Shown in pieces: positions 1,253 to 32,446 of a DNA stretch of 52,530 nucleotides; the stretch's first letter is position 1; each line of letters starts with the position of its first letter. The position numbers and the translations under genes were made by a program. Under the pieces are notes generated by a model. The model was given only the letters and a program-made list of their open reading frames with translations. It did no database searches and was not told the origin of the DNA. The stretch is from a virus. Its lineage: Duplodnaviria; Caudoviricetes. Where the stretch lies: the IMG/VR virus record IMGVR_UViG_3300033512_000519, positions 1 through 52,530 of that record; one strand, given 5' to 3'.

Positions 1253-1536
1253 TCGTATTGACTTACATATTCATCCCCTTCGTGTCCGAAACCCATCGAT
1301 GATAATATCTCAATAACTTGATTTCTTTGATTCTCTGCTCTTTGCTTAAGTTCTGGAGTAATCAATCTTGTATCCTCTTCTAAAGAACTGTTCATTTCGT
1401 CGGTTTCATCTTCTGATAAATCTTCTGAACCCGGATACATAAACCCAAATCCCCAAGGGAAATAAGAATTTGAATTTACACTATATACATCATCGCCTAT
1501 TTGGGACTGGAGTTTCGATCTCACAGATTCAAACAT
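1249..1536 (-). CDS. Acidic hypothetical protein, probably the frameshifted C-terminal half of 1529-1825
   Basis: MFESVRSK... begins right after an A8 run. Removing one A fuses it to the upstream ORF (191 aa). Confidence 0.6.
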   Translation of the reverse strand: MFESVRSKLQSQIGDDVYSVNSNSYFPWGFGFMYPGSEDLSEDETDEMNSSLEEDTRLITPELKQRAENQRNQVIEILSSMGFGHEGDEYVSQYE

Positions 1537-1825
1537 TTTTTTTCTCATTTTTTGAAAGTTTACTAACGGCTCCGCCGTAAGCATCCTCGCAAGCCTCTTT
1601 AACAAAAAACATAATACCAGTACTAGATCCGTATGGAGCCATATCGACATCTCCAACTCCAAAATAATATTCTTGCGGATTAAGGAATTCTTTTTCTTCT
1701 TTAATAACTCTCTCAATTGTATATAAAGCTTTTTTGTTCCATCCCGCTTTTTTACCAATTGATTCCCATTCACTCTTCGATATCTTAATGGTTTTCTTAC
1801 CACTCGCCTTTTTTACTATTTTCAT
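1529..1825 (-). CDS. Leader-bearing putative internal head protein, N-terminal part
   Basis: First 33 aa are 26/33 identical to the N-terminus of 19761-20129. RBS GGAG upstream. Confidence 0.75.
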   Translation of the reverse strand: MKIVKKASGKKTIKISKSEWESIGKKAGWNKKALYTIERVIKEEKEFLNPQEYYFGVGDVDMAPYGSSTGIMFFVKEACEDAYGGAVSKLSKNEKKNV

Positions 1826-3617: not shown

Positions 3618-6600
3618 TTATTTTTCACCATATATTGTCAATTCTTTATCAAACTTAGAATTTCCAATTGTAAATGAACTTGCTAATCTTGTTGCCAAAT
3701 TGTCGCTATCGCTACCCATTGGTTTTGATTCCTGAACGATTGCTGGTATACCATGACCAGTTACAACAGTCTTTTCAGCAGAAGCCGTTTTAACTGTTTT
3801 CTCTGGGAACATGCGACCTGCTACGACCTGTATCTGATCGGTTTCAAATCCCATCAAAGATTGAACAACTGTGTCAAAGGTTTCTTTGTCGCTAGCTATT
3901 CTTTTATTTGAAGCCAACCATGCTGCTGTTTGAATCGCTTCGTTTTTGCGAGCATTGGCGATACGATCCATCTGGACTTGACGTTTCTGCTGTACCTGTT
4001 TTAACATTTCGTCATTAATTGCAGGCATATCTTTCTGCATTTCCTTTTTATGACCCATGTAAGAACTATCGACTGGTACATCTGGTGCATCAGCCTTAGG
4101 ATTAATATTGTCAGCTCCTTCATTTCCCATTTCCGCATTGCCACGAGGAATGCTTGGTTTAGCCATAGGAACATCAATATTATCCGCACCTTCATTTCCT
4201 ATAGTTGCTTTGGAACGAGGAACACCAGCTTCCACATCGCCTTCTACTGAATCAACTTCTTGCAATTTTTTGGCTTCTTTATTAAGCAGTTCCAAAATTG
4301 ATTCTTTTGAAACGCCTGCTACTTTGGCTAATTTTGTCGCAATACTATCAGCTACCTCTGCAATTACAGTACCTTTCATTTGGTTATTAATTTCGGGCAT
4401 TCCTTTACCTTTGTTAGCATGATCATATCCGCCTTGGATTTCTTTTTCATGCCCCATATAAGAGCTATCAACAGCTACTTCTGGAAGTCCAATTTTAGGA
4501 TTGATATTTTCTGCACTTTCGTTACCCATCTGTGCATTGGAACGAGGAATGCTTGGTTTGGCCATAGGAACATCGATATTATCGGCACCTTCGTTACGAA
4601 TAGTCGCCTTTGAACGAGGAACGCCAGCTTCTACATTCCCTTCGATGTCATTAACCAGTTTAGGTGTACTTGCCATCTTAAAAACCTCCTTATTTGTATT
4701 TCTTACTCTTTTACCATTCATAGCAAGTGCTATTTGTTTATTATCTTCGGTATTTTCTGTAACAACAGAATCTAATACCGTTTGATTAGATTGAGAAGAT
4801 TCTTTTTCTATTTTTTCTTCTTTGTCGTCGTCTTTTTCCTCTTTATCGTCTTTTGGACATTCGCAAGGATCGCATTCGCATTTTGCACATTCCTTACAAT
4901 CCTTACCAGCTTCTACTATTTCATTTTCAACTTCGGCTTCGATTTCAATAAAATCGGCTGGTGGTAAAGCAGATCCGATATCCGCTTCATCCGCTTCAGC
5001 TAATTTTCTTTGTCTAGCTTCCATCTTGGCTACCTTTTGCTGCTCCATCATACGATTAAGAGTTGACAAGTCTTCAACCTTTATGCCGATCTCTAAATCT
5101 TTTTCAATATCTTCAGCAAAAGCATGAACATAGACGTTATCTGTCATTTCTGACGCAAAACGTTTCTTAACGCAATTGCAAATCGCTTCCGCTTCTTTCA
5201 AGCCATGTCCTTCATTTTTAGTCTGATCTTCGATGCATTCATCCCAAGGATCTTTTTCCATTGATATTGAAGCCATTTTATTTAAATGACGTATTTTACG
5301 GAATCCTAATCTTTGAAGTTCGCCGCATACGCAATCAGCCATCAATTTGCCTTTGCAAGGTCCGAATGAAGCAACAGTGTCACCACCGTATTTTCTCGCT
5401 AAACGTTCCATACATGCGCTTTTTGGGAAGCTATCTGAATTAGCTGATGCTGTTTTCAACATTTTAGCAACTCTTAATTCAGAAGCAAATTTCAAAGCCT
5501 CTTCTTTGCATGACTCACAATTTTCAACATCTGGGAATATATCCCATTGCACTCTTAATACTCCAACCTCAGGATTGCTTGCGCTAACCATGAAATCTTT
5601 TTCTACAGGAGTTCCGCATGCATGACAAGAGAATTCGGTATGTCCGTCAGCCTCAACAGCAGGCTTGCAATGTTTAGCACCGCATGATGGGCAAACGTGT
5701 CCATGTGCCTTCTGGTTATTGGCAATTCTAACGATAGAACCTTTACCAATATTAGTCTGAGCCGCTACTGGAAGTGCAGGAACTTCTGGTGCTTCTGGAG
5801 AGTCTGGAGATTCTGCTCCCTCTTCTCCAACGCTCTTTGTAGGCTTGATTATCTTGAACTCAACTGTCTTCTTGAGAAGAGCTTCGTATTCTGCCGTACA
5901 AGCGTTGCAAGAACCTTTGATGTCTCCACCTTCGTTTGTAACATCAACGTCTGTACTTCCGCATTCTGGACAAACAGTCCAAGGCATTTGACGTTCTCCG
6001 TCAGTAGGAATATCAGTGTCATCCATTCCAGCCGCTGGGTCTGTGGTTAACGCCTGAACTGGATCTCCTCCGGGCATTGCACCGGGCAATCCTTGTTCTG
6101 GAGCACCCTGAGCACCCTGATCCATCCCCGGCATTCCGCCACCCATAGGTGATTGAGCCTTGCGATTTATTTTTGAAGATACTTTGCTAGACTGCTTGCT
6201 CATTTTCTTTTCAGATGATGCCCATGAGTTACCAAGACCTTCGCCAGACATATCGCCCTCTGGAACTGTTTCGTCAGCTGGAGGAGCCATATCTGCTCCG
6301 CCAATAGGAATTTCAGTTGTTCCTGTGCCAGTGTCGATATTCACTTCATTTTCCTCTGTATCCGTTTGAACAGCGATTTGAATAGTATCGCCATTGATTG
6401 TTACATTGGTAATAGAAGCCATACGGAGATTTTGAGAAGCAAGAGCGCCTTTTGCAAACGCTACAACATCCTTCTTAAATGAAGGGTTGTTTTTCGTTGT
6501 ACCCATCTCGCTAAACGAAGTCTGGATTACAGTGTCAGCCTTGCCCAAGCCTTCTTTATTAACTATCTCATTGGTATTATCTTTTTTTTCAACTGAAGCT

Positions 6601-9230
6601 AATATTTGCTTTCTTTCAGCATCTCTTTCTTCTCTAGAGGATTTAGCTTTTTTTGTTTGAAGAGCGGCACGTAATTCAGCTTTACGATTAACCTTAGCTG
6701 TTTTCTCTTGAGTTGCAGAAGCCAAAACTTCTTCAATTTTTTGAGAAACACTATCAATACCGTCCTGTCCTTCAGAAATAATATCTAAAGCATCAATCAA
6801 GATATCAGGATTGATTGTTTGATCGGCGGCATAAGTTCTCAAGCCATCGACAATTGAATTTGCGATGTCTTTATTACCAGCACTAGCAACCTTGAGGTTT
6901 TTATTCTGCCAGAAAGCTACTCTCTTGGCATAATCAATTTCTTCTCTTGGTTTAGAATCTTCAATTAAAGAAGTCGCCAAATTGTAACGGTTTTCTAAGG
7001 AATCAACTAAGCCAGCAGAAACTGAGCAAGCCTCATCAGGTGTACATCCAGTTTGAATAGCAGACTCGGCGATAACCTTGATTACGCATTCCATATGTTC
7101 GGAAGCACTTTTGAACATTGCAGCATTACGCTTGGCAGATCTAGCCCAAGGAGCGGAAGTGTTTTTAAGTTGATTTTCAGTTACCGTATCGGGTTCAGAA
7201 TTAACTCTTTTCTCATCTAATTGCTTTTGAGTAATCATATGGAGATCGGCGTTCTCTCTGTAATTACCTAACTGGTGCTCTTGAACACGATCAACAGTCT
7301 CATTTAGTCTTGGGTGATGTTTAATCCCCTCGTCGAGTTGAGCTTCAGTTAATTCGTCTTCTTCACCTGTACGCAAATCCTCTAATTGTTTTTGCGTGGT
7401 TGAATGTTTATCATCTTTCTGTCTAGCATGATAAAGATCTGAACGTTCCAGCTGTCCTTCCTGAACTTGATCTGGAGTTGTTTGAACTGTAATTGCTCCA
7501 GCTTTTCTACTGATATCGATCATCTTATTTACTCCTTCTTTTTGTTTGTTTAGATTATTCGCAAATGTATCCAGTAAGTTTATTGCTGCATCCTTAGGCG
7601 ACTCTATAATTTCATTTCTTTCTTCTTCTGTTAAATCCTCATATGTCCACACTCTTTTTTCCGACGATCCTTTATCTTCGGCGACAATGATGAATGATTC
7701 ACCTGTTTTGTTTACAGACAAACGATGTTCGTTGTTTTGTATTGACGGTACTTTCTTTATATACTCAAAAAATGATTGTTTTTCCTCCCACGAATTTGAT
7801 AAAACTTCAATTGCCTTCTGTTTTTGAGCTTTTTTCTCTGAAATAGTTCTTCTAGCCGCCATATCTATATCTCCTGTTTTATTAATTCTTTCACAAATAT
7901 TCAATGCTTTTCGTAAAAACTCCTTCCCATCTGCTAGTCTTTGATCATAAGGAACACTCTTTATTCTACAACTTACGTCAGAAATTCTTTGTATAGAACG
8001 ACTATCTTCTATTTCAGACGTTCTAGGTTTTACCGGAGCTGTTATTGGCAAATTAGGTGAAGACGCAGATGGTTTACTAGGCGATCCGCTTACTTTACCA
8101 ACTGCCATCGCCGTTTCAGAAGCCGCTGGAGTAGGCATAGGTGCTCCCTGAGGAGGTTGCATACCTGCTACTGGCGGTTCCATTCCTAAAGTTACATTAT
8201 CTGCTGCCCCCGCTGCTCCTGCTGCTCCACCACCTTCCATATTACCAACTGTACCGGGAACTTCTGCACCTTGTACATTACCATAACCAGCACCTACAAG
8301 TTCTTCCAACCAAGTTTGCAAATCGGACATTATTTTTACTAAGTCGCTAGAAAATTCCATCTCAACTTGCTTACGATTCTGAATAAGACTAACTGCAATT
8401 TGCTCTAATGTTTCAAGACACTGTTCTATCTGATCAATTTCTTCTTGACTGGCTTCCTTGTGAATTGCCGCTGTTTTAATCATACGAAATTCATTTTCCA
8501 TTGAAGCAACTCTTGACAAGAAATTATCGTTTGGTATAATTCCCTCAATATGACAATTAGGACAGGCAGGATCTACAACTGCACTTAATTCTATAAATTT
8601 CAAACCATGATTGTACTCAAATACAGTCTCGTCTTTAAATTGTTTTTCCTCGCCAGTCTTAACATTGCGAGCTTTTCCTGAGAATTTTCTGCCTTTTCTA
8701 TTTCTAATATGACTGCAATAGTCCTCAGTTCTTTCAGCTCTATTTCCGCAAATATTACAGCAGCTATATTCAACGCTACATCCCATTGAAACGCCTGTTA
8801 CATACTCTTCTTCAATTGACCGACATATGTGAGGATAAGCATCTCTATCAATGAAACAAATTGTATATATGGCTTTCTCTTCTGGAACAGCTTCTGCAAA
8901 AATAACTTTACCACGAGCATTTTCTACGTTTTGATTGTCGTGATTTGTAAAGAAAGGGACGCCTTCGAAACTCTTATATGAACCTAAAAGTTCTTCCCAA
9001 GAAAAATAATCGCCATTTGTATTAGGACAATCTGCCTCGATAGCTTTGGCTCTGAAAAACAACGCATTTGGATGCTTTTTGATCTCAGCTAGAACAATAT
9101 TTTCTTTTTCGCTTCCCGGCTCAATAATAACACGACCACCAGCGGTACGCATCATTTTATCTCCACCTTCATTAGCTTTAGCAAATGGATTAATTTCTGT
9201 AAACTTAAATGAGGCTTTTTTTAGTATCAT
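3618..9230 (-). CDS. Prohead maturation protease/scaffold polyprotein (1870 aa)
   Basis: N-terminal protease domain (NxNGDYF, FTNHDN, GVSMGC, CxxC...CxH, FIELSAVVDPA). Then ExQL repeats, zinc ribbons, a duplicated 67-aa unit and a coiled-coil scaffold-like C-terminus. Upstream of decoration and capsid genes. Confidence 0.85.
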   Translation of the reverse strand: MILKKASFKFTEINPFAKANEGGDKMMRTAGGRVIIEPGSEKENIVLAEIKKHPNALFFRAKAIEADCPNTNGDYFSWEELLGSYKSFEGVPFFTNHDNQNVENARGKVIFAEAVPEEKAIYTICFIDRDAYPHICRSIEEEYVTGVSMGCSVEYSCCNICGNRAERTEDYCSHIRNRKGRKFSGKARNVKTGEEKQFKDETVFEYNHGLKFIELSAVVDPACPNCHIEGIIPNDNFLSRVASMENEFRMIKTAAIHKEASQEEIDQIEQCLETLEQIAVSLIQNRKQVEMEFSSDLVKIMSDLQTWLEELVGAGYGNVQGAEVPGTVGNMEGGGAAGAAGAADNVTLGMEPPVAGMQPPQGAPMPTPAASETAMAVGKVSGSPSKPSASSPNLPITAPVKPRTSEIEDSRSIQRISDVSCRIKSVPYDQRLADGKEFLRKALNICERINKTGDIDMAARRTISEKKAQKQKAIEVLSNSWEEKQSFFEYIKKVPSIQNNEHRLSVNKTGESFIIVAEDKGSSEKRVWTYEDLTEEERNEIIESPKDAAINLLDTFANNLNKQKEGVNKMIDISRKAGAITVQTTPDQVQEGQLERSDLYHARQKDDKHSTTQKQLEDLRTGEEDELTEAQLDEGIKHHPRLNETVDRVQEHQLGNYRENADLHMITQKQLDEKRVNSEPDTVTENQLKNTSAPWARSAKRNAAMFKSASEHMECVIKVIAESAIQTGCTPDEACSVSAGLVDSLENRYNLATSLIEDSKPREEIDYAKRVAFWQNKNLKVASAGNKDIANSIVDGLRTYAADQTINPDILIDALDIISEGQDGIDSVSQKIEEVLASATQEKTAKVNRKAELRAALQTKKAKSSREERDAERKQILASVEKKDNTNEIVNKEGLGKADTVIQTSFSEMGTTKNNPSFKKDVVAFAKGALASQNLRMASITNVTINGDTIQIAVQTDTEENEVNIDTGTGTTEIPIGGADMAPPADETVPEGDMSGEGLGNSWASSEKKMSKQSSKVSSKINRKAQSPMGGGMPGMDQGAQGAPEQGLPGAMPGGDPVQALTTDPAAGMDDTDIPTDGERQMPWTVCPECGSTDVDVTNEGGDIKGSCNACTAEYEALLKKTVEFKIIKPTKSVGEEGAESPDSPEAPEVPALPVAAQTNIGKGSIVRIANNQKAHGHVCPSCGAKHCKPAVEADGHTEFSCHACGTPVEKDFMVSASNPEVGVLRVQWDIFPDVENCESCKEEALKFASELRVAKMLKTASANSDSFPKSACMERLARKYGGDTVASFGPCKGKLMADCVCGELQRLGFRKIRHLNKMASISMEKDPWDECIEDQTKNEGHGLKEAEAICNCVKKRFASEMTDNVYVHAFAEDIEKDLEIGIKVEDLSTLNRMMEQQKVAKMEARQRKLAEADEADIGSALPPADFIEIEAEVENEIVEAGKDCKECAKCECDPCECPKDDKEEKDDDKEEKIEKESSQSNQTVLDSVVTENTEDNKQIALAMNGKRVRNTNKEVFKMASTPKLVNDIEGNVEAGVPRSKATIRNEGADNIDVPMAKPSIPRSNAQMGNESAENINPKIGLPEVAVDSSYMGHEKEIQGGYDHANKGKGMPEINNQMKGTVIAEVADSIATKLAKVAGVSKESILELLNKEAKKLQEVDSVEGDVEAGVPRSKATIGNEGADNIDVPMAKPSIPRGNAEMGNEGADNINPKADAPDVPVDSSYMGHKKEMQKDMPAINDEMLKQVQQKRQVQMDRIANARKNEAIQTAAWLASNKRIASDKETFDTVVQSLMGFETDQIQVVAGRMFPEKTVKTASAEKTVVTGHGIPAIVQESKPMGSDSDNLATRLASSFTIGNSKFDKELTIYGEK
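4035..4634 (-). repeat. Two 201-bp (67-aa) internal repeats in the protease/scaffold gene
   Basis: 4434-4634 and 4035-4235, VEAGVPRSKATI...DSSYMGHxKExQ, 55/67 aa identical. Confidence 0.9.
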
Positions 9231-11677: not shown

Positions 11678-13948
11678 TTATTGTTTTTGAGCGTTATGGT
11701 CGTCTTTATATTCCTGAAGATTCTTTTTCATCCACATTTTCTTTCGCATAACCTCTTGCAACACTGTACGGGAAATTTTCGGTCCGTCATGATCAATTTC
11801 TGTATCTGTGAATCTCAATATAGTCCAACCTTGTTGTTGTAACTTTGCATCTCTAGCGTTGTCTCTCTCAATTTGATCGGGAGAACCATGGAATACCTCT
11901 CCGTCAGCCTCAATTCCTATTTTCAACTCAGGTATTCCAAAATCTAATGCGTATTCTTGACCTGCCGCCTGAACCCTATATTGTGGGTATATAGTCTCAG
12001 TCAGTAATCCTTGAGTTTGAGCTTGACGCAATATAGGAATTAAATCTCTTTCCGCCTTTGTAAACATAATACGACCTTTCTCGTCTCTCATCTGTCCATT
12101 AGCATCCTTTTGACCTCTAACTCCTTGCGTTTCTTGTTGTCTAAAGATTTTTTGTTGATCTGATTTGATTCTGTCTCTCGTCTTCTGCTTTAAAACTTTA
12201 CCGCCAAATTGACTTGGATCGGCAATCTCAGCCGTTACGCTAGAACTTTTGGGCATTGGTCCGCCTACCCCGCCGCCAACTGGAGATGGAATTCCACCTT
12301 CAGCTCCACCGCCGGGAGCACCAATTGGAGGTTCGCCCATGTCGCCTCCGCCACCGCCACCAAGAGGAGGCATAGATGGTGCTCCACCACCTCCACCAAA
12401 TCCGCCTCCGCCAGCCCCGCCAGCAGCATCACCAAAACCTTGTCCAATTGCCATAAATTGTAAAGCATCATATCTTTTTCTTTCGATTTCCATATCTGGA
12501 TCAAGATCAAACGCTTCAAGTACAGTTTGGGCACTCAATAATCCCTTATCATAAAGCTGAATTATAAACGTTCTATACTGTTGCTGATCACGAAGATGCA
12601 TTGATCCCCATTTTATTTTAGGATAAATTAAATCTTCTTCGCCTGTATCTGGATTAACATCTACAAAACCTTGTCGTTTCGCCTCTGGAAGATATAAATT
12701 CTTTTCAATCCATCTTGCAACCTCGCCACGGAACGTTTCGAGCCTTTGTATCATCGCCTCAATACCAACGGCTGCACTTGAGAAATTCGGTCCCTCGCCA
12801 TTTAGCAATGCATTATTAATCATCATACCGTCTAGTACTTCTTGATTAATAAATTCAAATTCGTTAGATAATGTCAAAACTCTACCTGCGGCTCCAACGA
12901 AATCTAGTTCAAAAGCATGATGTGTTACAATGGTAAGATTTGGGTCATTGGCTGTTTGAGATAACTGAGATTGAACGTCTGCAATGTCGGCTGGACCCGC
13001 TGGACGCTCATCACTTCCCACTTTTACAATTTTAATAGGCACAATTAATCTTTCTGCAACAATCCATTGAGCAACCATCAATTTTGTTTTATATGAAAGT
13101 ATAGGGAATAATCTTCTAACCATACCTACGCCAAATTTCTGATACCCGCACTCTCCGTATTTCAAATGAGATACATTACGATTATCTAATGGTATGGGTT
13201 GACCAGAAGAAATTAAAGCTACTACATCTGGAGATAGCCTTTCGTAACCCGGCATTTTACGTTGTACCATGTTAATAAGTTCTTCGTCTGGACGCAATGC
13301 AATTCTAGGATCTGGATTTATAGAACTAGATTCAACCTCGATATAATCAGGATTTAATATTACTACCCGACGAATTGTTCCGCCTTCATGTTCGCATATC
13401 TCGTCACCAACTCTTCCAGTTCCATAACAAATTGGACATTCTATTTCAATGAATGGGAAACAATCTCCGAGCAAATGGACTTCATGGCTTATTAATCGAC
13501 ACCATTTAGGTAGTTCTAATTTGTCTTTAAGTTTATCAAAATGTAATTTAACATCTCTGTTTTTACATTCATGCTCAAAATTACTCATTGGAAAGTCGCT
13601 ATAAAAGTCAATAGCAGAAGCAACTTTTGGTTCGTTTTCATAAAAAAATCTAGACCATTGATATTGTTCTAGTCTTTTTGAAGGTATCTGCCAATTTATA
13701 GGGGTATGAACTGGTGAGAAGAATTGAGGTTGACCATAAATAATTCCATTATTGGTCGCCGCCGTTCTCATCATTCCAGAACCCCAAGAGCCAGTCGAAA
13801 CTGCGGCAGTTGGAGCATAATTATGTGAAGGAACTCTTTTATAATCAGGATGATTTGTTATTACTTGTCGGCTTACTTTTGCTGGATCTCTGCTTCTAAG
13901 TGCCTGAAATGCTTGATTCAATCCTGATGTTATTATTTCTTCTGACAT
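11678..13948 (-). CDS. Portal protein with C-terminal DUF559/Vsr-like endonuclease domain
   Basis: Portal-like core (FFYENEPKVASAIDFY, LLGDCFP, ILNPDYIEV, PIKIVKVGS), Gly/Pro linker, then PQYRV...ALDFGIPELKIGIEADGEVFH...DNARDAKLQQQGWTILRF. Confidence 0.85.
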   Translation of the reverse strand: MSEEIITSGLNQAFQALRSRDPAKVSRQVITNHPDYKRVPSHNYAPTAAVSTGSWGSGMMRTAATNNGIIYGQPQFFSPVHTPINWQIPSKRLEQYQWSRFFYENEPKVASAIDFYSDFPMSNFEHECKNRDVKLHFDKLKDKLELPKWCRLISHEVHLLGDCFPFIEIECPICYGTGRVGDEICEHEGGTIRRVVILNPDYIEVESSSINPDPRIALRPDEELINMVQRKMPGYERLSPDVVALISSGQPIPLDNRNVSHLKYGECGYQKFGVGMVRRLFPILSYKTKLMVAQWIVAERLIVPIKIVKVGSDERPAGPADIADVQSQLSQTANDPNLTIVTHHAFELDFVGAAGRVLTLSNEFEFINQEVLDGMMINNALLNGEGPNFSSAAVGIEAMIQRLETFRGEVARWIEKNLYLPEAKRQGFVDVNPDTGEEDLIYPKIKWGSMHLRDQQQYRTFIIQLYDKGLLSAQTVLEAFDLDPDMEIERKRYDALQFMAIGQGFGDAAGGAGGGGFGGGGGAPSMPPLGGGGGGDMGEPPIGAPGGGAEGGIPSPVGGGVGGPMPKSSSVTAEIADPSQFGGKVLKQKTRDRIKSDQQKIFRQQETQGVRGQKDANGQMRDEKGRIMFTKAERDLIPILRQAQTQGLLTETIYPQYRVQAAGQEYALDFGIPELKIGIEADGEVFHGSPDQIERDNARDAKLQQQGWTILRFTDTEIDHDGPKISRTVLQEVMRKKMWMKKNLQEYKDDHNAQKQ

Positions 13949-19760: not shown

Positions 19761-20129
19761 TTAAGATAATTTAGTAACCTTTGTTTTTTTGGAAGCGGTT
19801 TGTGGCGGTTGAACTTGTTGAGGTTGAGCCTGCTGTGGTTGAACCGGCTGAGCTTGCTGAGGTTGAGCCTGCTGACCTTTGTAATTTGCCGCCGCATCAT
19901 TTTGATCCGCTTGGTTTAACCATTGAGCTAAATAACTCAAAACAGCCTGAGACATCTGTCCGTTTTGTATTGCTGCCATAATTGGTTGAATATATTTTTT
20001 AGCTTCGATATCTGGATCGATTTCGACTTGCGCTTTTTTATTCCATCCTGCTTTCTTGCCAACATTCTGCCATTCACTTTTGCTCATCTTTAATGTCTTT
20101 TTGCCGCTTGCTGTCTTAACTAATTTCAT
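19761..20129 (-). CDS. Leader-bearing Gln/Pro-rich putative internal head protein
   Basis: MKLVKTASGKKTLKMSKSEWQNVGKKAGWNKKA leader, AAGGAG RBS, QQAQP repeats. Confidence 0.75.
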   Translation of the reverse strand: MKLVKTASGKKTLKMSKSEWQNVGKKAGWNKKAQVEIDPDIEAKKYIQPIMAAIQNGQMSQAVLSYLAQWLNQADQNDAAANYKGQQAQPQQAQPVQPQQAQPQQVQPPQTASKKTKVTKLS

Positions 20130-21998: not shown

Positions 21999-24446
21999 CT
22001 AATTGAGCTTTTTTAATTTCCACAATCCATATTCATCAAAAATTGCATCCGCCTCTTTATTTCCTTCAGAACGTATACTTTCCCTTGCAAATAATAATTC
22101 AAACTCGGAATAACCTCCTTTAAATAAAGAATTTGAATTAGTAATCATGGCATATTCCAAATCCTTGTCTATATCCATTCCGTATTTTAATTTCAATTTT
22201 AATGCTCTCAAAATAATAAATGGATTGTTTTTAACCAGATTTTTTGGATTATAATATGTCTTTATAACATTGTCTCGTATAGCTTTCTTGGCAACACGCA
22301 ATGGGTCAATAACTATATCTTGGATTATATTGTAAGCGAACATGTTTATTGTAAAATCTCTTCTTAAAATATCAATTACCATCTGGTTATGTAAATGCTT
22401 ATTCAATAAAGACAACTGAGCAATCTCTTTTTTATTTACGTTCAAGCTTAATTCTACTTTTATCCCTTTGTAAATAAATACCAAATCACTACCAACTGAA
22501 TATTGAACTCCCAAGCGAGAGGCAAGTAACTCTCCGAATTGAGCGTTAGATCGTTTGCAAGAAGTGGATATATCTAATTGTTCAACATCAGGATTGTCAA
22601 CGCCGAAAACCTTCTCTCTAGCGTACATACCTACAGCAAAAACATCAGATATTCCCATTTTCATAGCCAAAGACCTAGCCATAGTAATAATTTCTTCTAC
22701 TATTTTAGATCTGTAATTTGAAAATCCTAATAAATCCTCGATCAACTCGTCCAAATCTTCAGAGACTTTATCACTTTGAAATCTAGATTCAGCCTGTCTA
22801 AGAGTATCGGTAGGAATAGATGGATCTGTAATCCACACCGCATAGATAAGTTCTCCGCTATCTGTTTTACCGAATGAAAATGTTTTTACATTAACTCCAT
22901 CGCATGCAACAACACTTTTCAGCATAGGATATAAATCACTCGTTATTACAAGTCTTGAAGCTTTCATGTTTTTGGTTAAAATTCGATCCTTTATGGTCTC
23001 TAGAACCCTTAATATCTGTGGAACATCTGATTCCACACCAACTTCAGCTTGAGCAAATCTCTTGGCAGGATGTGTATTAGCTAAATCTTGCGTCATGTCG
23101 TCCCATAACTGCGGCTTTAGTTTTGGGTCAATCCATTTATAATAAAATCCCTTGATATCATAAGTCGGATTATAACGTGGTTGTGCTTTTATCCAATCTT
23201 CTTCGGCTGCAAATGATTCATCTCTATCATCCCATGCCATGACTCTGTCGCCCAATCCCGGTATTGTTGAACCGTCAGAAATATCTAGATTGTTGTACCA
23301 TCCAAACAAAGTCGCCTCTTTCTTAAGATTTGATGCTGTTTTTTCAAGTGGAACCATAAGAGGCTGTGGTCGTTTTTCTTCCAATAATTGCTCTAATGTT
23401 TTATATCCAGAAGACGTATCCCAATCCTTTGATAAAAGCTCTTCATAAATAAGCTCGACATTAGGAACGTAATCATTTGCAAATTGTTTTCTAAGTTGTT
23501 TTTCTATTATATCGCTGGCTTGGTTCAAACCTTTAGCTAATGGACTCATAAACTCTCGACCTAATCTGTTTTCAATTGGCTCGCTTTGATTCTGCTGAAG
23601 AAGCATACTCCATCCAGCCATAGTCCCGCCTACATATTGTTTGCCACCATGTCTTCCGCTTAAATCAGAACCATTAGGCTCATTTCTCGTATAAGATGGT
23701 AAATAATTAACATACTGTGCGTATTTATACCAATTCGTTCCTTTTGCAGTAACTCCAAGATCTACTGGTAAGTCCTCACCCGATTCTGACTGGTATTTTT
23801 GTTTTATTGTATCAATCATCTTGTTGACGAAATCTCTTTCCATACTTTGAGAGGCGGATTCGTCTCCACCACGAGAGTGTTCCCATTCATGGACAATAGT
23901 TGCTCCTAATTCCAGCATAATCAACATATCCCATAGTAAATTTGGATTGGCAATAGTTACTCCATTTGCTTGAGACTCATTGACTATACTTTGCATGTTC
24001 TGCTGAGTAGCACTTTTAACTTTATTGATATTTACACCAATAACTTCGCTTTTTCCAGCATTAATCTGATCCCATAATTGTTTGATCTCGTCTTGAACTA
24101 AAGAATCGTCTTTTTCAGAATCTTTAGGATAAGCAACTAACATGCCGCCTTCATCTTTAATTTCATAACCAGCCTGATTTAATCTGGTTTTTAGTTCATT
24201 GGTCTTTATTTCTTCCACTAAAGCAGGGATATATACTCCATATGCTCCCTGATTGGAAAAATCAAATATATAAGAAACATCCTGAGAAATTTGAGGAGCG
24301 TACTGATATACCAACTGCATAGTTTCTGGAGTTCTTGAAAACACAGAGGATAATTGAGAGTAATCAATATTGCCACCAACACTATATTGTGGCAGTGCTC
24401 CCTGATAATAAGATGAATAATCCTGATTTTGAGATATTTTCTGCAT
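21999..24446 (-). CDS. Multidomain protein: HExxH zincin-like domain, ExQL repeats, degenerate CCA-adding/poly(A) polymerase-fold domain
   Basis: TIVHEWEH; VFAVGMYARE...QLDIST; DILRRDFTINMFAY; NPFIILRALK. Confidence 0.8.
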   Translation of the reverse strand: MQKISQNQDYSSYYQGALPQYSVGGNIDYSQLSSVFSRTPETMQLVYQYAPQISQDVSYIFDFSNQGAYGVYIPALVEEIKTNELKTRLNQAGYEIKDEGGMLVAYPKDSEKDDSLVQDEIKQLWDQINAGKSEVIGVNINKVKSATQQNMQSIVNESQANGVTIANPNLLWDMLIMLELGATIVHEWEHSRGGDESASQSMERDFVNKMIDTIKQKYQSESGEDLPVDLGVTAKGTNWYKYAQYVNYLPSYTRNEPNGSDLSGRHGGKQYVGGTMAGWSMLLQQNQSEPIENRLGREFMSPLAKGLNQASDIIEKQLRKQFANDYVPNVELIYEELLSKDWDTSSGYKTLEQLLEEKRPQPLMVPLEKTASNLKKEATLFGWYNNLDISDGSTIPGLGDRVMAWDDRDESFAAEEDWIKAQPRYNPTYDIKGFYYKWIDPKLKPQLWDDMTQDLANTHPAKRFAQAEVGVESDVPQILRVLETIKDRILTKNMKASRLVITSDLYPMLKSVVACDGVNVKTFSFGKTDSGELIYAVWITDPSIPTDTLRQAESRFQSDKVSEDLDELIEDLLGFSNYRSKIVEEIITMARSLAMKMGISDVFAVGMYAREKVFGVDNPDVEQLDISTSCKRSNAQFGELLASRLGVQYSVGSDLVFIYKGIKVELSLNVNKKEIAQLSLLNKHLHNQMVIDILRRDFTINMFAYNIIQDIVIDPLRVAKKAIRDNVIKTYYNPKNLVKNNPFIILRALKLKLKYGMDIDKDLEYAMITNSNSLFKGGYSEFELLFARESIRSEGNKEADAIFDEYGLWKLKKLN

Positions 24447-24876: not shown

Positions 24877-25932
24877 TTAATTCGTTGTTATATTGTTCAT
24901 TATACAGAAATTTCGAATATAATAAGATGGCAATCCTACATTTAATCCGTATTCTCCACTCTGTGCAACGATTGATGTCAACATTCCAATAACCTCTCCG
25001 CTTTCTATTTTTACAATCGGTCCTCCGCTATTCCCTTGAAAGACAGGAGCGTCAATAAAGAAGTATTTAGGAGCACCTTCATGTCCATAAATCTGACGCC
25101 CAACAGCACCAATATTTCCAAAAGAAGCATTATTTTCAAATCCATGAGGACTGCCTATTGTTAAAATATCGTCTCCGACCTGCATAGACGAAACATCTAG
25201 AGAGAAAGGATCTACATCAACTTCAGCCTTTAATATAGCAATATCCAAAGCTGCATTCATTGATATAACTTGAGCAGGAACTTTATGTCCATTTTGAATT
25301 ATAAATACATGAAGCCTATCTTTATAATCATCTATATCAAACTCCGAATCAAGACTTTTATCATACCTAACAATAACATGAGCACAAGTTGCAAAATAAT
25401 AAGGAGCGACACAAAATGCAGCTCCAGTCTCTTTTATAGAATTATATGTATCAATTGATTCAACTTTGAAAGTCCTTTTTAGGGAAGATGATACAACTTG
25501 AACTCTATCTTGTTTTGCGGCAACTCTAGAAACCCACTTTATAGGTATCCCCTTCTGCCTCATTCGTTCCCGATATTTTTGAGCTAAATCAAACGAAGGA
25601 AATGTTTTAGAACCGCCCGGCAATTTTACTTTCCATTTTTCACTCTGATCTTCTCTCGGCGTTAATAGTTTATTGATAATTGCAAAATCTCGTTCTTCTC
25701 TCTTGTAATCTCCACCTTCTTCCATATAAGAATTAGTAACATCTTCTCCTTCACTCCAACTTCCTCCAGCGCCGGGAACTTTATAACTACGACCATCCAT
25801 AACGTCTTGAATTGTATGAACGTTATTAGTTGGGATTACAGATTTATTAGTAGTGGGAGTTAGACCTGTGCCCGGAGCAATTATCTCAGGCATAAATGTT
25901 CTAGATTCCTTTTTGATTCTATTGATATTCAT
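24877..25932 (-). CDS. Trypsin-like (HtrA-type) serine protease with N-terminal extension
   Basis: Intact triad: TCAHV, LDIAIL, GNSGGP. TIGSPHG motif. No PDZ domain. Promoter 25939-25966. Confidence 0.9.
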   Translation of the reverse strand: MNINRIKKESRTFMPEIIAPGTGLTPTTNKSVIPTNNVHTIQDVMDGRSYKVPGAGGSWSEGEDVTNSYMEEGGDYKREERDFAIINKLLTPREDQSEKWKVKLPGGSKTFPSFDLAQKYRERMRQKGIPIKWVSRVAAKQDRVQVVSSSLKRTFKVESIDTYNSIKETGAAFCVAPYYFATCAHVIVRYDKSLDSEFDIDDYKDRLHVFIIQNGHKVPAQVISMNAALDIAILKAEVDVDPFSLDVSSMQVGDDILTIGSPHGFENNASFGNIGAVGRQIYGHEGAPKYFFIDAPVFQGNSGGPIVKIESGEVIGMLTSIVAQSGEYGLNVGLPSYYIRNFCIMNNITTN

Positions 25933-28422: not shown

Positions 28423-31400
28423 TTAAACCCATCCCGTCCTAACTAGAATTGGAGCTGGTAAAGCCATCCTTAATCCTTCGTTTGCCGCCCATGTAGCTCC
28501 CGCCAAACAATCGCTCAAATCGTCCAACCCAACATCGCCATTTTTATCAGGTAATATAGTATATCCTCTTTTTGTTTTCTTAAACTTAAGCTCTTTCAAT
28601 TCACCAAGCAATAAATTTGTCTCTGAACAATTATCATACAGTAATATTTCCGGCTCAGGCTGATACAGCATCATATTACGTAAATTCTGATACACTTTAC
28701 ATTTAACTCTATCATTAAACGCTATTTGGTGACAATTAATTCCATGTCCTCTTAACTTTTGTACACTATGAACTGAATGATAATCGTCATATGTTACGGA
28801 CATTGGGTGAAATCTTGCACAAATTTTTATCATTTCATTATCAATATCATCAAACAACAGTCCTAATCCGGGCATTGGCTTCCATAACCAAACACCAGCT
28901 AACGAGCATCTTATTCTTTTTTGACCCTGCGGAGTAACATATCTCTGCTTCGCAACCATAACTGCCGCATAATTATTGCTTTTCTTAGCTGGGTCAACGT
29001 GTATATAATAATTAGTGGCTGGCATTGGTCTGGTATGAGGTCCAATATCGAACTTCAAACATCTATCTACAGCCCCCTCTTCAAAATAATTACCATACGC
29101 ACCGCTAGTTGACCATTGTGCTCCAAATTCTATAGTAAACATTTCTGGATTTGCATTGCGTTCCTTCATCATTTCTGGATCTGAATAAGAAACGTCCAAA
29201 TTTATATCCCAAGTAGGCAATTGGAATGATATACATGAATCTGCAATTGATTTTTCACTCGACGTTGCCTCGTTAAAAGCATCATAAAAGGCTCCATTTC
29301 GACTATTTGGAGAAGATATCATCACTACCTTGCCAGCTTTATATTTATAAAACTTTGATAATGAGGGCTTTAAACGATTAACAAAATATTTCCCTGTTAC
29401 CTTTCCTGTTTCATCATAGAACGCAATTTCGTCAAAAAGCAACAAAATAGCACTATATCCAGCTAATGAGTCAGGATTACTATGTCCGCACAGCAGTAAA
29501 ATTGACCCCGGAATACTAAGATTTGCTCCAGACTGCTTCTTTTGTAAATCACGGTCTGTATATAACCTAACTGAATCGGCTGTTTCCTTTGCGACACGAT
29601 TTTGGAAGAATGGCGAGTTTCTTATTCTTGCCTGAACTTGACCGAACAGACGCCCCGCTTGTTTTTGAGACAAAGCGACGTTGATTATTGCTATTTCGTC
29701 ATCATCTGGCAAGTTGTAATATCTATGTGGATCTCCGTTGTTAATAACTAATAATTTATAAGCCTCGTAAGCAGTAATAATCGATGCCATGAAAGTATTA
29801 TGTGAAATTATATCTCCACCTATAATATGATGAGGATCAACTTGTAAATCAACGGTTTTCGTTATCCCAACATGAATAACTTCATCAACAGTATCCCATT
29901 TCAAATCAGACTTAGCGCTATTTACAATAAATTCATTTCCGTAATTTTCACCAATTTCAATCAATTTGTCACGATTAGCTGAATACTCTTGTCTTAAACG
30001 TCCACTGATTGTTGTCGTTAATGCATTAATGGAAATGTTTTTATCATTTGATTCTTTTTTCAAAGCGTTCCATATTCCATGGGGGATGTTGTCAAATGGA
30101 CTTTTAGGTTTTGATCTTAGTTGTGATATTTCAACCACTTGATTGACTATTTGCTCTTTGGAAAAAATATTGATTTCATCTCTGAATTTTTTTAAACAAT
30201 CTTTTCTAACAATCGACAATCTCCAACTATCTTTATATCCGTCTTGATATTTTGCTTTAGAATATCGAACTGTAGCATGTATACCAAATTTTAAAAGCAA
30301 ATGTCTTATATCCATAACCAATTGTTTTGATGCCAAAGTACATCCGATAAGCGTTTTTTTAATTTTGTGTTCAGAATCAAGAAAACTATCAACAGATCCC
30401 CATCCATCACATCCGAAAAAACGAGACAAAAATGCCGATACTTCCGCCTTGGAACCTTCAAGTATACATTGTGGAACCCTCTTGTCTACAGATTTTTTTC
30501 CATAAACGCCCTCTGCTTTTAACCACTCCTTGACTTCATTCTGCTGGCTTCCTTTTTGATTGAATCGTCCACTGTCTTTAACTACCACATAATCATAATT
30601 TTCACGATGATTTACTGAATATCCTATGAACTCCTCGTTTATTAATCTTTTAAAATCTTGCAACATGACATCTGAACCAGTTGAATAACCAATATGATGC
30701 GTAATACCTCCATCTCCTTGAAAATGTCCTAGTAAAGCCGCTCTATTAGATCCTACCCTACCACGACCAAATAATTCTGTTTTATCTGCAACTGCAATTT
30801 TGTCGCCAATTTTTATATCCTTTAATTTTAAGAATTTTGGTTCGTTAAAATCGTCTCTCCATACCAAATAAGGATGATTCCACGATGATGTCTCTTCGAT
30901 TCCCCTTGACGTTCTTAATGTATAGCATTCAACCGCTCCATTATCTTTAGCCTTAACGTCATATGTAACCGATCTTTTCCAAATAGTTGTGTCATACGTA
31001 CAAATCCCTATTTTCTCTCCAGCACTAAGCCTGTCGCATAAAGATCGAAAAGTTAAAGAACCTTCCGTTGTTGCTATTAAATCATCCTCGCTTCTGCATT
31101 TCGATCCACGTCTTCCGAGTACCAAAACTAATTGCGTAAATGGATTATATTTTGCAGCTTTCTCTTTTTCGTGCAATTTAGTAATAACATCTCTTAGATT
31201 TCGTTCATAGGTAATTCCATCTAATTCTATATTGTCTTGTCTCTCATATAGCCATTCCCATTCGGATTGCGATAATTTTAGATCTTCGTTACCGATAGTA
31301 CCTTTATAAAAAGCCTTTAATATAACTGATTGACCGGGATAAATCTTAAATTCAATTTCCTCCATATTGAATTCATCAGTCTCTTCTTCTTTCTTAGCAT

Positions 31401-31587
31401 TCTCTTTTGCGTTTCTGTCCTCGTCATATGGAATACCTAAAAACTTAGGGTCGCTACAAAACGTCATTATGTCAACTATATTGTAGCGATCATCGTTCTC
31501 AACAAGTTCAGGATTATCACATTCTATCTTCCTAAGAGCTTCAAATAACGGGTTTCTTTTTGTTTCTTCTGTTTTTATCTTAGGCAT
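28423..31587 (-). CDS. terL: Terminase large subunit containing an intein
   Basis: Walker A GRRGSK|T, Walker B LLLFDEIAF, ISSP coupling motif, nuclease HVDPA and DDLSD. Likely start MPKIK at 31587 after GGAGG. Confidence 0.92.
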   Translation of the reverse strand: MPKIKTEETKRNPLFEALRKIECDNPELVENDDRYNIVDIMTFCSDPKFLGIPYDEDRNAKENAKKEEETDEFNMEEIEFKIYPGQSVILKAFYKGTIGNEDLKLSQSEWEWLYERQDNIELDGITYERNLRDVITKLHEKEKAAKYNPFTQLVLVLGRRGSKCRSEDDLIATTEGSLTFRSLCDRLSAGEKIGICTYDTTIWKRSVTYDVKAKDNGAVECYTLRTSRGIEETSSWNHPYLVWRDDFNEPKFLKLKDIKIGDKIAVADKTELFGRGRVGSNRAALLGHFQGDGGITHHIGYSTGSDVMLQDFKRLINEEFIGYSVNHRENYDYVVVKDSGRFNQKGSQQNEVKEWLKAEGVYGKKSVDKRVPQCILEGSKAEVSAFLSRFFGCDGWGSVDSFLDSEHKIKKTLIGCTLASKQLVMDIRHLLLKFGIHATVRYSKAKYQDGYKDSWRLSIVRKDCLKKFRDEINIFSKEQIVNQVVEISQLRSKPKSPFDNIPHGIWNALKKESNDKNISINALTTTISGRLRQEYSANRDKLIEIGENYGNEFIVNSAKSDLKWDTVDEVIHVGITKTVDLQVDPHHIIGGDIISHNTFMASIITAYEAYKLLVINNGDPHRYYNLPDDDEIAIINVALSQKQAGRLFGQVQARIRNSPFFQNRVAKETADSVRLYTDRDLQKKQSGANLSIPGSILLLCGHSNPDSLAGYSAILLLFDEIAFYDETGKVTGKYFVNRLKPSLSKFYKYKAGKVVMISSPNSRNGAFYDAFNEATSSEKSIADSCISFQLPTWDINLDVSYSDPEMMKERNANPEMFTIEFGAQWSTSGAYGNYFEEGAVDRCLKFDIGPHTRPMPATNYYIHVDPAKKSNNYAAVMVAKQRYVTPQGQKRIRCSLAGVWLWKPMPGLGLLFDDIDNEMIKICARFHPMSVTYDDYHSVHSVQKLRGHGINCHQIAFNDRVKCKVYQNLRNMMLYQPEPEILLYDNCSETNLLLGELKELKFKKTKRGYTILPDKNGDVGLDDLSDCLAGATWAANEGLRMALPAPILVRTGWV
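29797..31098 (-). mobile_element. Intein with LAGLIDADG homing endonuclease (434 aa)
   Basis: Starts CRSEDD, block B SWNHPY, LLGHFQGDGG and FLSRFFGCDG motifs, ends IISHN, followed by Thr. Confidence 0.92.
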
Positions 31588-32446
31588 TTTGTTCCTCCAA
31601 GATATAAATACCGTTTGATTCATCAGTCATAATACCTTTTAATTTTTCACTTTCATATATCGAACCATTACTCAATTTATTATCACGAATAGAAAATGTA
31701 TAAATTCCATTGCTACACATAATATATAATATGTCTTTTTTGAACATCAGTTTTTTCGGCTCTATTAATATTTTTTCGGATGGATGACCTGCAATTATAG
31801 ATATACTGTTTTTATCAACCTTTCTAACTAATCCGCAAAATGAATCTGACATAAACACACTACCATTATATGTAACCATTCCCGATGGAATTCCAATAGA
31901 TGTGTTTTTTAATGTATCTCCAATAGAAAATCTACACTTTCCATCTCCAGTTATATGATAAAAAGCAGAGCTATGATAGAAAAACAACTTATGTAAATCA
32001 GGATAGGCAATAAAAAAATTCTCATTACCAGCTGGCGACAACAAAGCTTTTGAATCAAAAGGAACGTTTTTAAGCATTTGGGATACAGAAGATTTAATAA
32101 CACCTCTGAAACTATTACTGGTTTTATTATTTTTTATTTTAATTGTTCGAACATCTCTTCCGCCATCTTCACATATAAATATGGTTTTTGTACCGTGATT
32201 ATAACCTATTCCAGATAAACTGCCAAAAGTAGGGTTGTCTCCATTACGGATTTTCCCATCAGATCCCTTCCAAAAAGGATTGTTGACGCCTTTTTCGGTT
32301 AACAAACCCAATTTATTACCATGAGTATACACTATACCTAGATCGTTTACCCAACACGCATCTTGTATTTCGGTATCGGTTTCAATTGTTTTTATTAAAT
32401 CTATTTTTTTAGTACCGACTGTTTTTTTAGAAATATTATATTTCAT
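31580..32446 (-). CDS. NHL-like beta-propeller protein
   Basis: Repeated blades (PSGMVTYNGSVFMSDSFCGLVRKV, IFICEDGGRDVRTI). Confidence 0.65.
   Translation of the reverse strand: MKYNISKKTVGTKKIDLIKTIETDTEIQDACWVNDLGIVYTHGNKLGLLTEKGVNNPFWKGSDGKIRNGDNPTFGSLSGIGYNHGTKTIFICEDGGRDVRTIKIKNNKTSNSFRGVIKSSVSQMLKNVPFDSKALLSPAGNENFFIAYPDLHKLFFYHSSAFYHITGDGKCRFSIGDTLKNTSIGIPSGMVTYNGSVFMSDSFCGLVRKVDKNSISIIAGHPSEKILIEPKKLMFKKDILYIMCSNGIYTFSIRDNKLSNGSIYESEKLKGIMTDESNGIYILEEQNA

Follow-up and report, generated by a model that had tools for sequence, protein, structure and literature searches.

A putative protease-processed head precursor of a tailed phage that joins a zincin-like hydrolase to a degenerate class II nucleotidyltransferase fold

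The window analyzed here is a stretch of 52,530 nucleotides from a virus of the Caudoviricetes (positions 1 to 52,530 of IMG/VR record IMGVR_UViG_3300033512_000519). At 21999..24446 on its minus strand, on which all features given below are also located, it contains a single open reading frame (ORF; P0001) of 815 amino acids, which lies between the genes for the terminase large subunit and the portal protein, i.e., in the head-assembly module. The explanation that we favor, with a probability of roughly 45%, is that the encoded protein is a protease-processed head precursor of an uncultivated huge phage, combining a zinc hydrolase, a hyperconserved piece of 87 amino acids and a non-catalytic nucleotidyltransferase module. 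A phage maturation protease would cut it at four conserved, disordered [KR]-x-A-[SQT] linkers, most likely after the Ala, which would release a zincin-like metallohydrolase of ~27 kDa with an intact HExxHxxGxxE motif, a linker piece of ~15 kDa, the hyperconserved piece (module D) of ~10 kDa, and a last product of ~40 kDa that consists of an alpha/beta domain plus the head and neck of a class II nucleotidyltransferase. The nucleotidyltransferase would no longer polymerize and may persist in a structural role or as a binder of nucleotides or RNA, and the zinc hydrolase would be the enzymatically active part. The genomic context suggests that the pieces are built into proheads, and by analogy with T4 Alt, T4 internal proteins and the ejection proteins of SPN3US they may accompany the DNA into the host.

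The ORF is supported by its open frame and by 144 homologs at E <= 0.001 among 8000 scored candidates; residue columns were counted either in 104 close homologs or in a set of 44 family members. Four shorter homologs, considered as split-gene forms, all lie on contigs of 1.0-1.4 kb and are fragments. An AlphaFold model built from the 44 sequences had a mean predicted local distance difference test score (pLDDT) of 72 (~90 in the nucleotidyltransferase part), and a second model, of residues 1-600, was built on 105 sequences. The estimated completeness of the window record is 12%, and that of two related records of 296 kb and 476 kb (both labelled 'provirus' by IMG/VR) is 98%; a contig of 525 kb carries one homolog. 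All motif strings quoted in an earlier note on this DNA could be located, namely HEWEH (186-190), KYAQ (241-244), KTAS (369-372), KEA(T) (376-379) and RFAQ (463-466), as well as VGMYARE (605-611), DVEQLD (620-625), RRDFTIN (695-701) and NNPFI (740-744) in the C-terminal part. No description of this architecture was found in the literature, with the survey supplements (S1.6 of PMC7824862, the list of zincin-like peptidases) lying outside the search.

Short motifs of the form [KR]-x-A-[SQT] separate the domains of the protein. The first putative site, KYAQ within NWYKYAQ (23715..23726), is conserved in 90 of the 104 close homologs; the second and third, which follow each other as KTAS-NLK-KEAT (369-379; 23310..23342), in 84 and 91; and the fourth, RFAQ (23049..23060), in 74, mostly as RFAS. 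All four fall in segments with pLDDT below 50 (232-276, 362-412 and 457-472), and a fifth occurrence, KSAT at residue 144 in a helix, is not conserved. Judged from these counts, the protein resembles a precursor that is split at conserved linkers. N-terminal extensions of at least 80 amino acids are present in 49 of the 104 homologs, with a strict motif within 12 residues before the core in 16 of the 49 (...YKTAQ(D/N)), and many short forms begin with M-x-x-x-K-I-A-Q (the query begins with MQKISQ). An upstream protease as the identity of these extensions was ruled out except in P0105, where a trypsin-like protease is fused to the N-terminus of a family member (49% identity).

The same motifs are enriched in the surrounding head module. 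When occurrences of [KR].A[SQT] in each ORF of the window were compared with shuffled sequences, a protein of 1870 amino acids had 16 (3.6 expected) and the 815-residue protein five (1.04 expected); several small proteins of the module have one or two, and the plus-strand genes almost none. The narrower form [KR].AS occurs 26 times in the 19 proteins from 3618 to 28337 (7914 amino acids; 5.0 +/- 2.2 expected, maximum 14 in 500 shuffles) and once in the other 23 proteins of the window (3.5 expected). An independent control was provided by the 98%-complete 296-kb relative, for which 279 crudely called ORFs were counted in bins of 20 kb: 26 motifs were found in the module bins (200-240 kb; 5.2 expected) and 31 elsewhere (31.7 expected). 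The polyprotein of this relative that is orthologous to the 1870-residue protein has 11 motifs (1.25 expected, p ~1e-7). An extended form, hVKTAS, is conserved in the orthologs of three neighboring proteins (7/7, 4/4 and 2/2), and other isolated occurrences are not. The description of a tagged polyprotein in the earlier note is strongly supported, in statistical terms, by domain-separating K-x-A motifs that are kept in 74-91 of the 104 homologs and enriched across the module.

The 1870-residue polyprotein (3618..9230) has an N-terminal prohead-protease-like domain (phrog_18299, head maturation protease, E 1.4e-16), and eight of its 16 motifs occupy matching columns in a 52%-identical ortholog. 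The 16 motifs would split it into pieces of ~20-260 amino acids, none of which matches Pfam. A second line of evidence is a leader with the consensus MKLVKTASGKxTIKISKxEWxxIGKKAGWxKxAQ (35 amino acids), which carries both VKTAS and GWxKxAQ. It is found in two small proteins of the window, one at 19761..20129 (MKLVKTASGK...GWNKKAQ, from leader comparison) and one at 1529..1825 (E 1.1e-18 with a hidden Markov model (HMM) of the leader), in six tandem copies just downstream of the ortholog of our gene in locus L001 (10451-12592), and in three copies where the 296-kb relative has its module. Among nine members the leader is 68% identical and the remainder of the proteins 17%. This leader family supports a targeting-plus-cleavage system like that of the T4 capsid targeting sequence, which accompanies hypervariable internal proteins (PMC9026906). 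Multiple propeptide cleavages have been described for SPN3US head proteins (PMC10052503). With the T4 internal proteins and Alt and with the head and ejection proteins of SPN3US and phiKZ, the present system shares the location of its genes in the head module, a motif enriched among head proteins, a leader common to otherwise variable small proteins, and a protease-bearing precursor with many sites. It differs in the motif itself, which is [KR]-x-A-[SQT] and not (L/I)-x-E or (A/S/G)-x-E, in the absence of sequence similarity, and in that packaging and cleavage are predictions here. A further likeness is to the sites of herpesvirus assemblin, e.g., YLQA-T and VQA-S in pseudorabies virus (PMC4498786), in which Ala at P1 and Ser/Thr at P1' also occur within a protease-scaffold precursor; the scissile bond is assumed here, and a basic P3 residue is preferred, unlike in the assemblin sites. 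Homology and a common fold link the prohead proteases of phages with the herpesvirus enzyme (PMC9026906).

Between the first and fourth sites lie a linker piece (piece B, residues 245-368; 23343..23714), mostly of low pLDDT and moderately conserved, and module D (residues 379-465; 23052..23312). The latter is the most conserved part of the protein, with a mean pairwise identity of 0.72 versus 0.29-0.45 in the other parts, and is modelled by AlphaFold with low confidence. Related D modules form the C-terminus of other proteins (three of ~250 amino acids, three of ~565, and one with an ATP-grasp domain), and K/R-x-A-[SGT] directly precedes the module in six of these seven. Our guess is that module D anchors the precursor in the prohead and is freed by cleavage at both sides. 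A feature-cluster comparison of residues 244-470 gave no usable match. Module D is followed by an alpha/beta domain (residues ~473-582; 22701..23030; pLDDT ~90), which was matched by VIA-align to 2guk, a structure of unknown function (Z 9.1), and to R3H-type domains (Z 6.5-6.7). An R3H identity was rejected: R498 is invariant, but the residue at +4 is Thr or Ser, not His.

The N-terminal domain (residues ~7-243; 23718..24428; pLDDT 86-97) contains HEWEHSRGGDE (186-196; 23859..23891), a match to the metal-site motif HExxHxxGxxE. H186, E187, H190 and E196 are invariant in all 44 sequences and in 16 of 16 distant and fused forms, and G193 is kept in 42 of the 44. Comparison by VIA-align with 48,161 chains ranked three YbeY structures first (Z 8.0, 8.0 and 7.9), followed by the zincin-like protein 3e11 (Z 7.5) and Wss1 (Z 7.0), values below 8 being common; archaemetzincin, deuterolysin and others matched at Z 5-6. 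Foldseek found nothing at E <= 0.001 with the model of residues 1-600. Similarly, no zincin family of Pfam matched any of the 44 members at E <= 0.001, and only DUF3810 (three members) and DUF6782 (one) appeared at E <= 1. A feature-cluster comparison placed the domain nearest to zincin families at <= 0.85, which serves as a lead only. Relative to the second His, G193 is at +3 and E196 at +6, so that Glu stands at the third-ligand position, where metzincins and YbeY have His. The domain has fold-level matches (Z 7-8) to minimal zincins, metzincin-type proteins with HExxHxxGxxH sites and YbeY (UPF0054), and the spacing of the two His, the Gly and the putative third ligand is as in those proteins; it departs from them in Glu196, in the missing Pfam zincin match and, compared with YbeY, in the presence of the catalytic Glu. 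The YbeY motif is H-x3-H-x5-H, with Gly after the first His; the query departs from this triad, with Glu187 next to the first His and Glu196 in place of the third. From sequence and model together, we assign the domain to a new sequence family of zincin-like metallohydrolases. Peptidases are marked by an invariant Glu in HExxH, which YbeY is not known to have, and because Glu187 is invariant, a peptidase appears more likely than a nuclease.

The zincin-like domain also occurs in other settings, as revealed by a search with a profile of residues 1-466 against 1.84 billion representatives, which yielded 168 proteins at E <= 0.001. It stands alone in proteins of ~200 amino acids, is combined with a 2H phosphoesterase in P0173, and lies C-terminal to complete canonical CCA enzymes in P0213, P0218 and P0220 (partly also in P0210, P0216 and P0217). 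These fused enzymes hold PolyA_pol, PolyA_pol_RNAbd, HD and tRNA_NucTran2_2 domains, and the fusions begin with ...WYKTAQ. P0220, a metagenomic protein of 1653 amino acids, has SWYK[IT]A[QE] at four junctions between unknown domains, the canonical CCA enzyme and the terminal zincin-like domain. Two viral loci retrieved for the context of P0218 matched its CCA part only, without the zincin fusion. Fusion of the zincin-like domain to class II transferases has therefore taken place at least twice, with differing domain order. This is the strongest argument for a common function at RNA ends and for the cytoplasmic reading considered below. Separate canonical CCA enzymes are also encoded in four related phage records, each ~32 kb from the ortholog of our gene, with GGW[VI]R[DN], DIDxMVD, RRD, [DE]DPLR and an HD domain. 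In three related phages (L012, L014 and L015) the canonical CCA/HD enzyme carries [KR]xA[SQ] at a common place (IRQAS, FKTAQ and VKTAS), preceding a C-terminal helical extension of roughly 110-150 amino acids, and these enzymes may be processed too. No tRNA gene was found in the window.

The protein might instead be a cytoplasmic factor for RNA-end processing or repair, in which a YbeY-like RNA hydrolase, or a hydrolase of a tRNA-linked group, works with the nucleotidyltransferase module; its location in the head module would then be coincidental, with the K-x-A motifs serving for linkage or docking. We regard this as rather unlikely. In its favor, three YbeY structures are the top fold matches of the N-terminal domain, and the spacing H-x3-H-x2-G-x-D-[H/E] is equal to that of YbeY; the domain is fused to canonical CCA enzymes and, in P0173, to the 2H phosphoesterase; and the middle domain has R3H-type matches. 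CCA-adding enzymes for tRNA repair are carried by jumbo phages, in a survey of which uncharacterized zincin-like peptidases are reported separately (PMC7824862). However, the peptidase-type Glu has no known counterpart in YbeY, the YbeY scores are tied with those of the peptidases 3e11 and Wss1 within a range that is called common, enrichment of the motif is limited to the head module, a WYKTAQ leader opens the fused CCA enzymes as well, and related genomes already have a separate canonical CCA enzyme.

The C-terminal ~230 amino acids (residues ~583-815; 22002..22700) are, by both sequence and model comparison, a class II nucleotidyltransferase head and neck beyond chance. PolyA_pol of Pfam (PF01743) scores 26.8 bits over residues 606-728 (E 7.1e-6; cut-off 23 bits), two PHROGs annotated as tRNA nucleotidyltransferase match the protein, and phmmer retrieved E. 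coli poly(A) polymerase (E 1.4e-5), with RRDFTIN aligned and NNPFIILRA opposite EDPVRMLRA. Among 49 PDB matches of the model by Foldseek at E <= 0.001, ranks 1-45 were class II CCA- or A-adding enzymes or poly(A) polymerase and ranks 47-50 were FAM46/TENT5, the top match being 4wby (E 1.3e-10, ~225-243 columns). The fold lacks body and tail domains: its alignments with chains of 342-517 residues span only ~210-250 columns, and the ORF stops ~70 residues past motif D. Consistently, PolyA_pol_RNAbd and tRNA_NucTran2_2, present in the fused canonical CCA enzymes, had no Pfam match in this protein. Compared with class II tRNA nucleotidyltransferases and poly(A) polymerase I (PF01743; 4wby, 1miv, 3aqk), the common features are the head and neck fold, RRDFTIN of motif B, LRA of motif D, and Gly606 and Arg610 of motif A; the differences are GM for GG, QLD for DxD, NNPFI for EDxxR, the missing body and tail, and the position of the fold as the C-terminal third of an 815-residue head-module protein. 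That the fold arose recently by duplication of a CCA enzyme of the phage itself was ruled out (26% identity over 80 amino acids only).

The catalytic set of this fold is incomplete in the query. A profile alignment of the family with the A. aeolicus A-adding enzyme places Q623-L624-D625 at DxD and G606-M607 at GG, so that in motif A (VGMYARE...EQLD, residues 605-625; 22572..22634) neither the GG/GS cap, with M607, nor the pair of carboxylates, with Q623 at the first Asp, is complete. The third carboxylate position, the conserved strand Glu of 'LEF', corresponds to E665. Motif B is intact as R695-R696-D697-F-T-I-N701 (22344..22364; D697 in 42 of the 44 sequences). Motif D (NNPFIILRA, residues 740-748; 22203..22229) stands in place of EDxxRxLRA, and xNP together with a hydrophobic residue where the Arg would be is found in 43-44 of the 44 sequences (N741 in 43, P742 in 44); N701, P742 and A748 are invariant in this set. 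The alignment with PcnB/Cca-type enzymes thus gave QLD at DxD and NNPFI at EDPVR, exactly as first read. Among the 104 close homologs, the first Asp column has E in 35, D in 31, N in 10, S in nine, Q in six, a gap in six, K in three and others, and the second has D in 60, E in 25, N in nine, R in four, S in three and others. Acidic residues occupy all three carboxylate positions in 29 homologs and at most one of them in 26, and the canonical set of G[GS], DxD and the third acid is retained in 23.

The distribution of these states suggests several losses. In a FastTree tree of 105 rows, 11 state changes were counted, of which at least nine are forced by well-supported branches, and none of 500 shuffles gave a number as low. 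The G-D-D-D state is paraphyletic across one large clade with losses nested in it, and the query clade has M-Q-D-E. A distant branch of like architecture (~800 amino acids) has GG, DLD and the third Asp in eight of its eight domain-bearing members, and motif D reads xNP-hhh-[LT]RA in all members, the distant branch included. The variant motif D is, as the alignments indicate, ancestral to the whole group and therefore by itself no sign of inactivation; NNPFI, listed in the earlier note, should not be taken as such a sign on its own, since the variant coexists with an intact GG, DxD and D set. Loss of the metal ligands is, on the same type of evidence, recent, repeated and lineage-specific in a fold that was ancestrally catalytic. 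The term pseudo-enzyme, proposed in the earlier note, accordingly suits the query lineage and not the family as a whole, and its suggestion to check DxD in phage homologs gave a divided answer, with the motif lost in the query clade and kept throughout the distant branch. The degenerate domain is nevertheless under constraint: mean identity in the query clade is 0.49 for the nucleotidyltransferase versus 0.60 for the zincin part, compared with 0.56 for both in the G-D-D-D clade. In our reading, catalysis was lost repeatedly without loss of the place in the protein, which implies a second, non-catalytic role.

It is unlikely, in our estimate, that the nucleotidyltransferase of the query is still active by means of E622, D625 and E665, tolerating Q623 and using a nucleotide pocket of non-canonical type (NP...RA). 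Two of the three carboxylates (D625 and E665) are kept with E622 adjacent, motif B is intact, and the variant motif D accompanies an intact set in the eight distant and 23 close homologs mentioned above. However, Pol-beta-type enzymes use the first Asp of DxD to bridge the metals, the two Asp columns vary freely (Q, N, S, K, H, C or a gap at the first; N, R, S or T at the second), as in the absence of catalytic constraint, and the strand pattern makes L624 a core residue, so that E622 should point away.

The protease responsible for the predicted cleavages may be sought within the module, where a trypsin-like (S1C) serine protease is encoded two genes upstream (24877..25932; Pfam Trypsin_2, E 2.2e-19; syntenic in 10 loci). 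This protein has a conserved N-terminal region of ~165 amino acids without a family match, retains the His, the Asp and the Ser of GNSGGP, and is itself without [KR]xA[SQT]. One might also assign processing to the zincin domain, acting on WYKxA-Q-type sites in cis or in trans, with the serine protease of the head cutting hVKTAS. In favor of such a division of labor, WYKxAQ follows the zincin domain in 90 of the 104 family members and in seven of nine members of the distant branch, sites of this type occur in proteins that end with the zincin domain, at the four junctions of P0220 and at the N-termini of P0213 and P0218, and the catalytic site is invariant; but GWxKxAQ likewise closes the leader in small proteins lacking a zincin domain, and both site types share K-x-A-[SQ], which leaves this assignment improbable to us. 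Least probable is the reading first proposed, in which a pseudo-enzyme, possibly ejected, would bind or shield the 3' ends of tRNA or serve as a decoy for tRNA-targeting defenses: a fold kept without its full catalytic set, the conserved motif B, the basic character of the nucleotidyltransferase piece (isoelectric point (pI) 9.2) and the link of the zincin-like domain to CCA enzymes elsewhere agree with it, but class II enzymes hold tRNA by their body and tail domains, and only ~230 of the 340-520 residues of solved enzymes are aligned here.

Several observations weigh against the interpretation as a processed head precursor with a non-catalytic transferase. First, the retention of D625, E665 and the neighboring E622 makes residual metal binding possible. 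Second, the resemblances to YbeY, R3H domains and nucleotidyltransferases, together with the CCA fusions of the zincin-like domain, suit an RNA-end enzyme of the cytoplasm no less than a protease. Third, the acidic alpha/beta domain (pI 4.5) disfavors nucleic-acid binding. Fourth, the module holds three candidate proteases (the prohead-protease-like domain, the trypsin-like protein and the zincin domain), and the first of them is identified by its match to PHROG 18299, Pfam and PDB sequence searches with it being empty. Fifth, a role of module D as a general cargo tag was rejected, as HMMs of D run on the six-frame translation of the window and on the 296-kb relative found the target only. Finally, no close cultivated phage was found: tblastn against 50,697 phage records matched nine Lak-B megaphages only, and those matches are limited to residues 601-774, in the C-terminal fold, at 27% identity.

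A bolder proposal, which we hold to be distinctly unlikely, is that capsid loading in one clade of huge phages follows an undescribed targeting-and-cleavage code (the 35-residue leader and [KR]-x-A|[SQ], which resembles assemblin sites of herpesviruses) and that the cargo is a kit for RNA 3' ends, made up of a zincin/YbeY-like hydrolase and a class II nucleotidyltransferase and injected along with the DNA to pre-empt attack by the host on tRNA; the transferase here would then be a non-catalytic binder of RNA ends and module D the prohead anchor. Almost all huge phages are uncultivated, and the candidate code of [KR]-x-A-[SQT] plus leader could predict the virion or ejected proteome of the whole clade from sequence. 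The recurrent pairing of a small zinc hydrolase with a CCA-type nucleotidyltransferase, which is in no curated family, points to an unrecognized RNA-end step of phages. In addition, the natural series from fully equipped to clearly degenerate sites within one architecture should be useful for understanding why pseudo-enzymes are kept.

The gene order of the module begins with the terminase and continues with proteins of 399 and 307 amino acids, the trypsin-like protease, a protein of 103 amino acids, the target, proteins of 154 and 86 amino acids, DUF192, proteins of 75 and 265 amino acids, an AAA ATPase, proteins of 332 and 455 amino acids and the portal protein, beyond which lies the 1870-residue polyprotein. 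The order from terminase to portal is shared by all 10 IMG/VR loci, at identities as low as 37%; two of these loci are near-identical. The terminase large subunit at one edge (28423..31623; 1066 amino acids) contains an intein with a LAGLIDADG domain and is ~26% identical to terminases of Microcystis phages; its orthologs in related loci have 579-632 amino acids and no intein, with the exception of L009 (952 amino acids). At the other edge, the portal protein (11678..13948; phrog_16240, E 6.1e-43) has at residues ~626-749 a DUF559 / REase_MTES_1575 / HNH-endonuclease-like region (Pfam E 1.5e-10), which may be a fused or inserted homing endonuclease. Genes are on the minus strand from 724 to 38233 and mostly on the plus strand from 38530, and the GC skew flips at this strand switch, at ~38300.

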